A DNA stretch of 10,456 bases from a virus. Position numbers and translations under genes: made by a program. Under the pieces are notes generated by a model. That model saw nothing but the letters and a program-made list of their open reading frames with translations, searched no databases and was not told where the DNA came from. The stretch lies in the UHGV virus genome UHGV-0112874, one strand, 5' to 3'. Below are positions 7,152 through 8,355 of this stretch, in pieces (the first letter of the stretch is position 1; the number at the start of each line of letters is the position of its first letter).

Positions 7152-7892
7152 AATATTTTCGGTGAGGATAGTGATATAACTCTTGCATTTTTCAAAAAAA
7201 ACGGATACTCTGAAATAGATAATTGGGGTTCTGCATCTACTGCTGCTAGTATTGTTGCCGAGGTAATCTGTTTGTACCAGTTGTAAAGCAGATGTTGTTC
7301 GGTATGCAAGTTGATGTTACGATAGAGTAGTTATTTTATATAAAACCCCAATGAATATCGGTGGTTTTAATCTCTGGATGGATTCTTGCTACATGATGTT
7401 AACGCATTACGTAGAATATTGTAACTTTGTGCTGTTGTATTTGATATACCGAATTCCCTGGTTGGTCTTCCTTCCGTATGTACTTCAAACCATATAGAAC
7501 CTACTAATCTTGACGTTTTATATACTGCGAACTCTTTTGCGTTAATTGGCAGTGTTATTCCATTACGATCTATAGTTTTTGTACTGAGTTAGAAATGCAA
7601 TTTATTATGTCAATTGTCGATGTTGTTGTGTCTATATAAAAATCAGAATTGGCACCTAAACTAAAAAATACCAAAGGTGCGATATAAATTTTCTTAAGCA
7701 TGGTTTATTTCTTTATAAGTTCTGAATGATTATTATAGTAACAAATTATTATTAATTTTTGCTTTATCAAGTTGTGATGTAAATATGTATATTATTTGGT
7801 CTTAAATTGATGTTTGTGCGTATGAATGCAATTAGATAACATGTATAATGTTGCTTTATATGATAAAAAAATGGCTTTATTATTTTTTGTTG

Positions 7893-7921
7893 TTGACTGG
7901 TGAATGTCGTCTATTTAGATT
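7893..7921 (+). promoter_or_regulatory. Sigma70-like promoter ~100 bp upstream of the tRNA cluster (candidate tRNA promoter and/or pR')
   Basis: -35 TTGACT (7893-7898), 17-nt spacer, -10 TAGATT (7916-7921), with an A/T-rich UP-like tract upstream. Confidence 0.4.
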
Positions 7922-8021
7922 TTACATCATATATATTATGCACGAGTAAGGTGACAATATTATTATGATGTTTGCTGTCTGTTATGATTTATTTTAGAAC
8001 TAGCGAGTATCATAGCTTTAC

Positions 8022-8098
8022 GGCCCTTTAGCTCAGTAGGTAAGAGCGAGCGACTCATAATCGCAAGGTCGCTGGTTCAAGTCCAGCAAGGGCCACCA
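8022..8098 (+). tRNA. tRNA with CAU anticodon (Ile2/lysidine type or Met); resembles E. coli ileX and phage ileZ
   Basis: Cloverleaf by hand: acceptor GGCCCTT/AAGGGCC, D-arm GCTC...GAGC, anticodon loop CT-CAT-AA (CAT at 8056-8058), T-arm CTGGTTCAAGTCCAG, discriminator A, encoded CCA. Confidence 0.9.
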
Positions 8099-8099
8099 A

Positions 8100-8173
8100 C
8101 CGCCACTAGCTCACCGGGTAGAGCAGCAACTCTGGCGTTGTGGTACGGAGTTCGAGGCTCCGGTGGCGGTCCA
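8100..8173 (+). tRNA. tRNA-like gene with canonical acceptor, D and T arms but an aberrant anticodon arm (6-nt loop); identity undetermined, possibly a pseudo-tRNA
   Basis: Acceptor CCGCCAC/GTGGCGG, U8-A9, D-arm GCTC-ACCGGGTA-GAGC, T-arm CGGAG-TTCGAGG-CTCCG, CCA encoded. The only 5-bp anticodon stem (GCAAC 8126-8130 / GTTGT 8137-8141) leaves a 6-nt loop TCTGGC; a 4-bp stem would leave 8 nt. One nt separates it from each neighbour. Confidence 0.55.
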
Positions 8174-8174
8174 T

Positions 8175-8251
8175 GCGCCGTTAGCTCAGTTGGATAGAGC
8201 AATTGCCTTCTAAGCAATCGGTCACTGGTTCGAATCCAGTATGGCGCACCA
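8175..8251 (+). tRNA. tRNA-Arg (anticodon UCU)
   Basis: Acceptor GCGCCGT/ATGGCGC (one G-U pair), D-arm GCTC-AGTTGGATA-GAGC, anticodon stem ATTGC/GCAAT with loop CT-TCT-AA (TCT at 8209-8211), T-arm ACTGG-TTCGAAT-CCAGT, discriminator A, CCA. Confidence 0.9.
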
Positions 8252-8323
8252 TACGGTCACCATATAATGGCTATTATCTCTGCCTTTCAGGCTATGGCGC
8301 TGGTTCGATCCCCGCTCCAGATT

Positions 8324-8355
8324 CATAATCAGGCTCGCACCGGCGGGTTTTTTTT
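8324..8355 (+). terminator. GC-rich segment followed by T8: probable intrinsic terminator closing the tRNA cluster (candidate tR')
   Basis: GCTCGCACCGGCGGG followed by TTTTTTTT (8348-8355); short stem CTCGC/GCGGG. Preceded by a tRNA-like T-arm relic GCTGG-TTCGATC-CCCGC (8299-8315). Confidence 0.5.

Follow-up and report, generated by a model that had tools for sequence, protein, structure and literature searches.

The window, as the whole stretch analysed here is called, consists of 10,456 nucleotides of DNA from the virus genome UHGV-0112874. The part discussed below contains the antiterminator gene Q, a late promoter, a small tRNA cluster and a terminator. These parts are arranged in the order known from Stx phages, with a cargo other than toxin behind them. 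What each part is, and how it corresponds to other loci in homology and synteny, is observed; the region can be read with a probability of about 0.8 as that part of a lambda-like prophage, probably from Escherichia, which holds late regulation and cargo. An identical 3.3-kb segment is present in at least four independent assemblies.

The gene Q (6399-7151, plus strand) encodes a protein of 250 amino acids. The initial annotation called it a lambda-type Q gene, and this is borne out by matches to the Pfam family PF03589 (9.4e-53) and to the structure of lambda Q in PDB entry 7UBM (2.6e-37). The latter match falls into two blocks, residues 1-120 and 160-249. Relative to lambda Q, the protein has an extra insert of about 40 amino acids, a second zinc finger of the CxxCxGxG type, and there is also a Pfam match to DnaJ_CXXCXGXG. 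At the nucleotide level, the gene is about 92% identical to Q of SfV, mEp460 and Stx2c/Stx2k phages.

The late promoter pR' is assigned by homology to positions 7183-7211 on the plus strand, directly 3' of Q. It consists of the -35 hexamer TTGCAT (7183-7188), a spacer of 17 nucleotides (7189-7205) and the -10 hexamer TACTCT (7206-7211), which is weak. The site aligns with TTGCAT-17-TAAGAT directly 3' of Q in mEp460, phiSTEC1575-Stx2k and two E. coli prophages, and its spacer agrees with that of these cognate phages at 15 of 17 positions. The geometry is that of the lambda promoter, TTGACT-17-TAAATT. In lambda-family Q systems the binding element for Q lies in the promoter spacer, and a -10-like pause element is found at +1 to +6. 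The spacer at 7189-7205 is thus expected to be the Q-binding element. A candidate sigma-70-dependent pause element is found at 7218-7228 (plus strand), where the -10-like hexamer GATAAT (7218-7223) is followed by T and then GGGG (7225-7228). It begins 6 nucleotides 3' of the -10 hexamer, the same spacing as that of AACGAT-GGG in lambda and the cognate phages, and by analogy with lambda the hexamer may cause pausing. The composite pattern has one match in the window and none in 200 shuffles, and it recurs 3' of Q in related loci. A weaker pR'-like promoter directly after Q had been pointed out before. That site turns out to be pR' by homology, with its -35 hexamer one base further left than given. 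The role of pR' had instead been offered to a site at 7893-7921, an assignment that gives way here, since homology with lambda and with the phages whose Q is about 92% identical places pR' at 7183-7211 and the pause element 6 nucleotides further on.

In related phages pR' is followed by a terminator, tR'. The window carries only a remnant of it, identified by alignment with these relatives at 7254-7278 (plus strand). The remnant aligns with the relatives' AACCCGCCGCTGAGCGGGTTTTTTTGTGCC, but its hairpin has been destroyed by a 9-nucleotide deletion and substitutions, although the homology persists on either side. In the relatives the hairpin is strong (z -3.1), whereas positions 7218-7330 of the window fold no better than shuffled sequences. 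A relaxed scan of the plus strand from 7212 to 8022 found no convincing terminator. Positions 7266-7300 can form a weak hairpin that ends in a U-rich tail. Judging from the alignment, the lineage has lost its pR'-proximal tR'. The same state is found in the related sequence L001/L255 at 8% divergence, and the loss is therefore not a recent accident. Scans for the variant pR' leader gave no match in IMG/VR; in metagenomes they gave only L255, which is the element of the E. coli cM8a plasmid again, and an unrelated chance match (L256). The transcribed region next to pR' (7200-7300) is the part most diverged from L001, at about 25%, which could mean that the function of pR' is decaying.

Between pR' and the tRNA genes lies a spacer that had been described as about 740 bp of AT-rich non-coding DNA. 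AT-rich it is, with a GC content that falls to 25-33% over 7350-7950, but it also contains a pseudogene and a divergent promoter region. The pseudogene (7367-7701, minus strand) is antisense to late transcription. It encoded a small secreted-type protein and has been frameshifted by a 10-bp deletion. Its two frames jointly reproduce an intact 114-aa open reading frame in L001 (4183-4527, minus strand), and an E. coli O157:H16 prophage has, in the same position 5' of a tRNA array, a 113-aa homologue with 45% identity. The 114-aa protein has no match in Pfam or NCBIfam. A promoter-like site that may serve this gene (TTTACA-17-AAAAAT, 7755-7783, minus strand), seen in a consensus scan only, lies 54 nucleotides upstream of its ATG at 7701.

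Two further promoter-like sites on the plus strand precede the tRNA genes. The first, TTGACT-17-TAGATT, was indeed found by consensus scan at 7893-7921, where the initial annotation had placed a promoter-like element, and it is a possible tRNA promoter. Both hexamers are unchanged in L001, with three changes in the spacer. The site shows neither similarity to the Q-binding element nor the arrangement of a pause element followed by GGG. The number of promoter-like matches in so AT-rich a stretch is no higher than chance would give: 10 were found, and shuffled sequences have 7.1 +/- 2.8. The second site, TTATTA-17-TATGAT at 7960-7988, is the probable tRNA promoter pT. Its -10 hexamer aligns with the TATTAT of TTGCAg-17-TATTAT, which lies 9-10 nucleotides upstream of the first tRNA in 933W, where it is annotated as pT, and in four other prophages. 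Its -35 hexamer is poor, and a 21-nucleotide insertion separates the site from the tRNA. Positions 7954-8000 are identical in L001.

ARAGORN, the check proposed for the cluster, found all three of the back-to-back genes with 1-nt spacers that had been noticed from the letters, all in the same orientation (8022-8098, anticodon CAT; 8100-8173, irregular; 8175-8251, anticodon TCT). The first is a tRNA-Ile2(CAU) gene of the ileZ/ileX type (Rfam tRNA model, 71.5 bits), which reads AUA after lysidine modification. It is a homologue of ileZ in 933W, and the identical sequence in L001 is annotated as tRNA-Ile by PGAP. The last is a tRNA-Arg(UCU) gene of the argO/argU type (Rfam, 71.2 bits), which reads AGA. 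It is followed by a decayed tRNA-Gly(UCC) at 8252-8330 (plus strand), recognised by alignment with the tRNA-Gly of Ile-x-Thr-Gly arrays in L006 and L002. This remnant has lost its acceptor pairing, has an altered anticodon loop, differs from L001 at 6 positions and receives neither an ARAGORN call nor an Rfam match. The array as a whole matches ileZ-argN-argO of 933W at 77% over 256 nucleotides. Together with its 70-nt leader it is 1% divergent from L001, against 6-25% in the flanks. In the open reading frames of the window, AUA, AGA and AGG occur at 7.9, 7.5 and 4.7 codons per thousand; AUA and AGA are used 2-4 times as often as in E. coli on average, taking a general figure for that average. 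Weak Rfam matches over the tRNAs to YrlA (28.7 bits) and Plastid-ycf2 (minus strand) score far below the gathering scores and reflect likeness to tRNA; these identities are rejected. A literature search on ileZ/argN/argO found nothing.

The middle gene (8100-8173, plus strand) is a non-canonical tRNA-like gene of the argN lineage. Its minimum free energy structure is a cloverleaf and it encodes CCA, but its anticodon loop, UCUGGC, has six nucleotides. It thereby departs from the layout of a canonical elongator tRNA, a 7-nt loop with U33, a 3-nt anticodon and purine 37. ARAGORN labels it 'tRNA-???', the Rfam tRNA model does not match it even at E<=1, and PGAP leaves the identical sequence in L001 unannotated. 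Its acceptor and D arm are common to argN, Arg(UCU) and Lys(UUU) genes in the same slot. The slot thus holds a gene of the same lineage in place of the canonical argN tRNA-Arg(UCG). Its 74 nucleotides are the same as in L001; the neutral rate of the neighbouring DNA would predict about 5-6 differences, and the flanks diverge.

The tRNA genes are followed by an intrinsic terminator with a run of eight T residues (8331-8355, plus strand), formed by the stem 8331-8338/8343-8350, the loop ACCG and T8 at 8348-8355. The terminator that had been reported after the three tRNA genes is there, but about 80 nucleotides of decayed tRNA-Gly intervene. The hairpin is weak (-9.8 kcal/mol, z -2.2), two G-C pairs having changed to G-U. 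Its homologue in 933W, phiSTEC1575-Stx2k and an O145 prophage directly follows argO and in 933W is annotated as a 'possible rho-independent terminator upstream of the stx genes'. Because the pR'-proximal tR' is lost, this hairpin is the first convincing intrinsic terminator 3' of pR', and the tRNA genes therefore sit in the first terminator-bounded late segment. In this sense the earlier proposal that the tRNAs lie in the late leader is partly borne out; the leader is to be counted from 7183, not from 7893.

Beyond the terminator lies the cargo slot, which is the position of stx in Stx phages. The only open reading frame in 8356-10231 that could be assigned to a family is an iraM-like anti-adapter gene at 9348-9695 on the minus strand (NCBIfam NF007393, 124.6 bits, cut-off 121). 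Its product is presumably RpoS-stabilising. The gene is annotated as iraM in an 89%-identical segment of the E. coli cM8a plasmid. An 83-aa open reading frame at 8790-9041 has no match in Pfam or NCBIfam. BLAST comparison with the 933W and Stx2k loci found similarity limited to the tRNAs and STnc100, with stxA and stxB absent, in agreement with the earlier statement that no toxin genes follow the array. The downstream edge of the slot is formed by the prophage sRNA STnc100 (10232-10449, plus strand; Rfam RF02076, 123.8 bits, gathering score 47), which has its own terminator. This sRNA lies directly 3' of stxB in the phage locus L005 and 5' of nanS-p in L003, and in L011, a sister contig of the window, the nanS-p esterase gene comes next after it. 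It was also considered as a pR' leader and rejected, as in other phages it is found downstream of stxB or the cargo.

The layout of Q, pR', tRNA array, terminator and cargo slot is already standard in Stx phages and in many non-Stx lambdoid prophages. The resemblance to Stx-phage late regions, which had been raised earlier, is confirmed by the 77% match to ileZ-argN-argO, the homologous terminator, STnc100 and nanS-p. The layout of 933W, with Q, pR', qut, terminators including tR', pT, ileZ-argN-argO, the pre-stx terminator and stx2AB, is taken from the annotation of GenBank record NC_000924. The order and orientation of the parts are the same there, and the array, the -10 hexamer of the tRNA promoter and the hairpin after the last Arg tRNA are homologous. 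STnc100 and nanS-p lie 3' of the cargo slot in both. The Q of 933W has 157 amino acids and is described in the record as similar to Q of H-19B and DLP12, whereas Q of the window belongs to PF03589. In contrast to 933W, the window has no pR'-proximal terminator, the non-canonical gene with its 6-nt loop fills the argN slot, a decayed tRNA-Gly is added, and the cargo slot holds, in place of stx, an iraM-like gene that runs on the opposite strand. In phiSTEC1575-Stx2k, STnc100 follows stxB; here it follows the cargo slot.

With the lambda antitermination module of Q, pR' and tR' (6S RNA), the window shares the Q family, a promoter directly 3' of Q whose spacer is 17 nucleotides long, and, 6 nucleotides past the -10, a -10-like pause hexamer that precedes a run of G. 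Lambda has tR', whereas in the window the first terminator lies about 1.1 kb downstream, past the tRNA array. A Q of about 92% identity and the same pR' -35 and spacer occur in mEp460, SfV, E. coli O145 and avian prophages and the ydfT/quuQ type of Qin. The proposed comparison with non-Stx lambdoid prophages showed that many E. coli prophages share the layout. Q, the tRNA array and the lysis layout also occur together in non-Stx E. coli prophages and a Yersinia phage. At 0.2-2 kb downstream of Q, several non-Stx relatives with the same Q have an array of the type Ile2-Arg-Arg or Ile2-Lys-Thr-Gly, and behind it come cargo, STnc100, nanS-p and a holin gene; mEp460 has no tRNAs. These non-Stx relatives keep a strong tR' about 50-75 nucleotides after the start, unlike the window. 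Positions 7178-8345 are shared with only one other lineage, an IS-flanked fragment on plasmid p2 of E. coli cM8a.

A scheme for how the segment works can be predicted from the sequence, with respect to promoter activity, pausing, Q-dependent read-through and a role in codon supply. Q would act at pR' (7183-7211) as in lambda, binding the promoter spacer and loading onto RNA polymerase paused at 7218-7223. Between pR' and the T8 hairpin the polymerase would pass the antisense small-protein gene, which is dead here, the divergent AT-rich promoter region and the tRNA array. Once modified by Q, it should read through the terminators at 8331-8355 and at the end of STnc100 (about 10420-10447) and on into nanS-p and the late genes. 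In a lysogen the array is probably transcribed from its own promoter or promoters, at 7960-7988 and/or 7893-7921. It may also be transcribed from pR', because the pR'-proximal tR' is lost. Without Q, transcription from either promoter would stop at the T8 hairpin. Upon induction, the array would be over-expressed within the late transcript, supplying tRNA-Ile2 and tRNA-Arg(UCU) as decoders of AUA and AGA.

Other explanations differ in which promoter and terminator they regard as the late pair. According to the initial annotation, 7893-7921 is pR', the tRNAs are its leader and 8324-8355 is tR'. This is very improbable: the binding element in the spacer and the pause architecture of lambda-family Q promoters sit at 7183-7228, the spacer at 7893 is unlike the conserved one, promoter-like matches are at chance level in this stretch, and 933W and four other prophages have a separate pT just 5' of the first tRNA. 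These points outweigh a sigma-70 match at 9 of 12 positions, hexamers conserved in L001 and the place of the T8 hairpin as the first terminator downstream. If pR' at 7183 is kept, the leader without tR' might itself have a function. Constitutive pR' transcripts of about 1.1 kb would then run through the array, with the T8 hairpin as the effective tR', and the tRNAs would be the lysogen's short pR' product, replacing the 6S RNA of lambda or StxS. Both parts of this proposal are possible, though on the unlikely side. The terminator hairpin has been specifically destroyed amid retained homology, the state is seen also in L001/L255, no other convincing terminator comes before 8331, and the plus strand is G-rich and C-poor, which makes it a poor substrate for Rho loading. 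However, the -10 hexamer is weak and the leader diverges fast, H-NS or Rho could silence or terminate an untranslated AT-rich stretch of 800 nucleotides, there is the weak U-tailed hairpin at 7266-7300, the antisense gene, being transcribed towards pR', would cause interference in lineages that have it intact, and the array has a conserved promoter region of its own.

Two explanations deny the segment a present role. The whole could be decaying cargo of a defective prophage, inactive now. Signs of decay are present: a KilA-N::DUF968 fusion, a large deletion in the early region of the sister contig, the antisense pseudogene, the tRNA-Gly remnant, the lost tR' and the irregular middle tRNA. Yet the three tRNA and tRNA-like genes have no differences from L001 in 230 nucleotides, compared with 6 in 79 for the tRNA-Gly remnant and about 8% in the upstream DNA; Q is intact and full-length, and the 3.3-kb segment recurs unchanged in independent assemblies. 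A relic is thus quite improbable. Prophages often integrate into tRNA genes, and a recent preprint reads tRNA matches near prophage sRNAs in this way, so the array might instead be the scar of an integration site (a duplicated attB). We regard this as extremely improbable. The genes of the array run in the direction of late transcription and are placed after Q and ahead of the lysis genes; tRNA arrays fill this slot also in the genomes of the free phages 933W, phiSTEC1575-Stx2k and Yersinia phage YeP1; only the tRNA-Gly remnant is less than full-length; and neither a flanking integrase nor an att-core repeat was seen.

The middle gene leads beyond this locus. Scans of GTDB species representatives and IMG/VR for the exact pattern, with a loop of 6 or 7 nucleotides, gave no match, and a looser, acceptor-anchored pattern was used to collect a sub-family from prophages. 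Its body (acceptor CCGCCAC/GTGGCGG, T-loop TTCGAGG, a 4-nt variable region and encoded CCA) is near-invariant, a conservation that the search pattern itself partly imposes, the unbiased comparison being that of the window with L001. The anticodon loops have only 5-6 nucleotides and differ in sequence between lineages. Hypermutation of the loop was considered and rejected, as the loops of closely related pairs are identical or 1 nucleotide apart. Since such pairs barely differ, relaxed constraint could account for the variation, which does not demonstrate diversifying selection. A literature search on 6-nt anticodon loops found nothing. An eLife paper of 2023 (PMC10264068) proposes that phage tRNAs evade tRNA-targeting defences through changes in the anticodon loop. 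The genes described there and those discussed here are alike in being phage-borne and in having anticodon loops unlike those of host tRNAs, but the sub-family has loops of 5-6 nucleotides that should not decode at all. It is a speculative and rather unlikely idea that 8100-8173 belongs to a conserved class of non-decoding tRNA mimics in prophage arrays of Enterobacterales. If it were true, the RNA would be unable to read codons. It might then be kept, for instance, because it draws off modification enzymes or the defence nucleases that target tRNAs, as a decoy or sponge would, or because it has a part in the processing or structure of the array.

As a finding, a standard late-region layout with an iraM-like gene in the toxin slot adds little. 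What sets the lineage apart is the loss of the pR'-proximal tR' and the shortened anticodon loop of the middle tRNA-like gene. The latter points to an unannotated tRNA-like sub-family that is skipped by standard tRNA finders and PGAP. The former provides a natural tR'-less variant, in which one could see whether the terminator of a tRNA operon is able to serve as tR' and whether tRNAs are then expressed from pR' in lysogens.

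The Q antiterminator gene occupies 6399-7151 and encodes a protein of 250 aa. Its description as lambda-type is correct: the product matches Pfam Antiterm (PF03589) at 9.4e-53 and the structure of lambda Q (PDB 7UBM) at 2.6e-37. The structural match falls into two blocks (aa 1-120 and 160-249), and the ~40-aa insert between them bears a second CxxCxGxG zinc finger. Megablast searches give Q and ~56 bp on its 3' side (to 7207) ~92% identity with the Q genes of SfV, mEp460, and Stx2c and Stx2k phages. Over the remaining early region, identity with mEp460 and phiSTEC1575-Stx2k is 95-96%.

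Parts of the prophage seem to have decayed. The ORF at 5621-6385 joins the N-terminal part of KilA-N to the final ~26 residues of a DUF968 protein, which implies a deletion of ~1 kb relative to mEp460. A still larger early-region deletion is found in L011, a longer sister contig, where Q is placed directly after cro. Further upstream, genes for isrK (4068-4144) and the C4 antisense RNA (4169-4256) lie inside the ORF at 3708-5189. Both exceed Rfam gathering scores, and isrK closes with a terminator. The layout resembles the P1 immI-like c4-antirepressor module, with a Rha-type domain from ~aa 222. The ORF is mechanically continuous (493 aa), and gene callers give it as one protein. Because its Phage_ASH Pfam match (aa 117-211, nt 4056-4340) coincides with the two RNA genes, the 'Ash' assignment may reflect translated RNA-gene sequence.

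The late promoter pR' can be located by aligning the DNA after Q with that of four related phages and prophages. In the relatives Q is followed by TTGCAT, a 17-nt spacer TTTTCAAAAAATATGGA, TAAGAT, 6 nt, and AACGAT-GGG. This is the architecture of lambda 'base for base', where TTGACT-17-TAAATT is followed by 6 nt and AACGAT-GGG. In lambda, AACGAT serves as the sigma-70-dependent pause element, and Q binds in the promoter spacer. The window has a homologous layout: a -35 TTGCAT (7183-7188), a spacer TTTTCAAAAAAAACGGA that agrees with the relatives at 15 of 17 positions, a -10 TACTCT (7206-7211) and, 6 nt further on, a pause-like GATAAT (7218-7223) followed by TGGGG. This composite pattern has a single match in the window and none in 200 shuffles, and it recurs immediately after Q in related loci. 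These observations point to the site directly after Q, 7183-7211, as the predicted pR'. The initial annotation had listed this site as a weaker candidate and placed its -35 one base too far right.

Its preferred candidate was 7893-7921. A consensus scan does find TTGACT-17-TAGATT there, but the conserved spacer and the pause-plus-GGG arrangement that are present at 7183-7228 are missing, and this site was rejected as pR'. The AT-rich stretch (25-33% GC between ~7350 and 7950) contains 10 promoter-like sites against 7.1 +/- 2.8 in shuffles, which is no excess.

In the relatives, a strong tR' hairpin, AACCCGCC..GCGGGTT followed by T7, lies ~50 nt past AACGAT-GGG. This hairpin has been destroyed in the window and in L001, an IS-flanked segment of E. 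coli cM8a plasmid p2 that is the only close relative of the window over 7178-8345 (92% identity). Alignment of the tR' site in the window reveals a 9-nt deletion and substitutions, with homology kept on either side. On folding, the hairpin of the relatives reaches a z of -3.1, and 7218-7330 of the window does no better than shuffles. A relaxed hairpin-plus-U-tract scan of 7212-8022 found no convincing terminator on the + strand, only weak A/U-rich stems (e.g. 7266-7292, -6.1 kcal/mol). Transcription from pR' would thus meet its first real terminator at the T8 hairpin beyond the tRNA genes. Divergence between the window and L001 is greatest in 7200-7300 (~25%), and the lineage boundary at 7178-7207 has the look of a lambdoid mosaic junction of the usual kind, inside the conserved -35 and spacer.

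The DNA between Q and the tRNA genes is not simply non-coding, as had been thought. It holds a broken gene on the - strand (7367-7701), intact in L001 (4183-4527, -) as a 114-aa ORF with a signal-peptide-like N-terminus. In the window a 10-bp deletion has shifted the frame, and the two frames jointly rebuild the L001 protein. A 113-aa homologue with 45% identity occupies the equivalent position in an E. coli O157:H16 prophage (L257 2941-3282, -), antisense between Q and the tRNA array, just 5' of the array and ahead of nanS-p. The 114-aa protein has no family in Pfam or NCBIfam. Secreted-type proteins of ~114 aa recur just 5' of prophage tRNA arrays, divergent from them, in the window, L001 and L257. 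A consensus scan places a promoter-like site for the antisense gene at 7783-7755 (-). With this gene in the supposed spacer, AT-rich 7702-8021 is best read as a divergent promoter region between the antisense gene and the tRNA array.

On the tRNA side, the GenBank record of 933W annotates a 'pT; putative tRNA promoter' 10 nt 5' of ileZ, and its element TTGCAg-17-TATTAT is kept in four other prophages. The -10 of pT aligns with TATGAT (7983-7988) in the window, which is preceded at 17 nt by a poor -35, TTATTA (7960-7965), and separated from the tRNA by a 21-nt insertion. The window and L001 are identical over 7954-8000; at 7893-7921 both hexamers are unchanged and the spacer has 3 changes. Judged from these sequences, the array may be driven by the 7960-7988 site, the 7893-7921 site, or both.

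ARAGORN bears out three co-oriented tRNA or tRNA-like genes with single-base gaps, all on the + strand: a tRNA(CAT) of ileZ/ileX type (8022-8098; the identical L001 sequence is tRNA-Ile by PGAP), an irregular 'tRNA-???' (8100-8173) and a tRNA-Arg(TCT), i.e. with a UCU anticodon (8175-8251). The Rfam tRNA model gives the first and third ~71 bits each and has no match to the middle gene, even at E<=1. A decayed tRNA-Gly(UCC) follows at 8252-8330 (+), a remnant that shows up when the Ile-x-Thr-Gly arrays in L006 and L002 are aligned with it. Between the window and L001 the three called genes show 0 differences in 230 nt, the remnant 6 in 79 nt, and the upstream DNA ~8%. Codon use in the window ORFs, per thousand, is 7.9 for AUA, 7.5 for AGA and 4.7 for AGG; the E. 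coli averages are ~4, ~2 and ~1. This 2-4 fold elevation fits the usual codon-supply explanation.

The middle gene folds into a complete cloverleaf whose 7-bp acceptor stem is perfectly paired; it has an encoded CCA and a 6-nt anticodon loop, UCUGGC. Its acceptor and D arm are common to argN (UCG), Arg(UCU) and Lys(UUU) genes in the same slot of other prophages. An acceptor-anchored pattern scan of GTDB species representatives and IMG/VR yielded 117 GTDB loci, mostly Enterobacterales, and at least 120 IMG/VR contigs; 138 unique sequences were compared. Canonical sub-lineages have variable bodies and invariant 7-nt loops (CTTCGAA, CTTCTAC/CTTCTAA, CCTTTAA). About 35 of the 138 form a coherent short-loop sub-family with an encoded CCA and a cloverleaf body that hardly varies, ..GAGCG[A/G]CAAC-loop-GTTGTAGTA-CG[G/A]GGTTCGAGGC[T/C]CCG-GTGGCGG-[A/T]CCA, a conservation partly imposed by the search pattern and regex, the unbiased datum being the zero divergence from L001. 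The loops are 5-6 nt and depend on lineage (CAGGAT, CCAGGT, CTTAGC, CTTGAG, CACAGT, CGTTAT, CACGAT, CATGGT, and others), and column entropy across the sub-family peaks sharply there. Since the loops of close relatives are identical or 1 nt apart, there is no sign of hypermutation, and the pattern agrees with constraint on the tRNA body but not on the loop. Co-oriented arrays that contain these genes include Ile2-x-Thr-Gly, Ile2-x-Arg and x-Gly. The genes are unannotated by PGAP and missed by the Rfam tRNA model (window 8100-8173; loci L006 and L018-L234), and no description of the class was found in the searchable literature.

The hairpin plus T8 at 8331-8355 was recovered by the consensus scan as CAGGCTCGC-ACCG-GCGGGTT-T8. 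It aligns with CAGGCTCGC-TTTT-GCGGGCC-T6 directly 3' of argO in 933W, phiSTEC1575-Stx2k and an O145 prophage, and the 933W record annotates the hairpin after argO as a possible rho-independent terminator upstream of the stx genes. The version in the window is weaker because two G-C pairs are now G-U pairs.

Where Stx phages carry stx, the window instead has an iraM-like anti-adapter gene (an RpoS stabilizer) on the opposite strand (9348-9695, -; NCBIfam NF007393 at 124.6 bits, cut-off 121; annotated as iraM on the cM8a plasmid). Its upstream region is ~500 bp at 26-29% GC (AT-rich 9729-10231). A minus-strand terminator-like hairpin, CCCACC..GGTGGG then T6, lies ~800 nt downstream of it at ~8505-8545. 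No gene could be assigned in 8546-9347, which has a single 83-aa ORF (8790-9041) without a family match. The downstream edge of the slot is the STnc100 sRNA (10232-10449; Rfam 123.8 bits), with a strong terminator. Elsewhere STnc100 lies directly after stxB (phiSTEC1575-Stx2k) or before nanS-p (O145 prophage). Identical copies of 7152-10456 exist in four assemblies, one of which, L011, runs on into a 640-aa DUF1737-SASA esterase of nanS-p type (L011 12222-14144). STnc100 and PasD have been described as sRNAs of prophages that are associated with PF03589 Q genes and with esterases (bioRxiv 10.64898/2026.05.13.724894). The proposed synteny with Stx phages is thus confirmed in detail, through the array, post-argO hairpin, cargo slot, STnc100 and nanS-p.

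The 87-kb cM8a p2 carries both the leader-to-terminator segment (27061-28230) and the iraM-STnc100 segment (20407-21824) at ~89-92% identity, rearranged and flanked by IS fragments, which indicates that late-region cargo has moved out of a prophage.

The same layout, a tRNA array 0.2-2 kb past Q and then cargo and lysis genes, is found in non-Stx prophages, whether their Q is of this type or another. Examples are an avian E. coli prophage (Ile-Lys-Thr-Gly), the O145 prophage (Ile-Arg-Arg), FAM21845 (Ile-x-Thr-Gly), EC416 (Ile-Arg) and Yersinia phage YeP1. The arrangement is therefore already known. The particular combination in the window is rare: among 5,426 complete genomes of E. coli, 1 has the 7212-8021 segment. 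What the initial annotation observed is largely real, and it is a Q-tRNA-terminator module of a known type, in which the tR'-less pR' leader and the short-loop tRNA-like gene are minor oddities worth noting.
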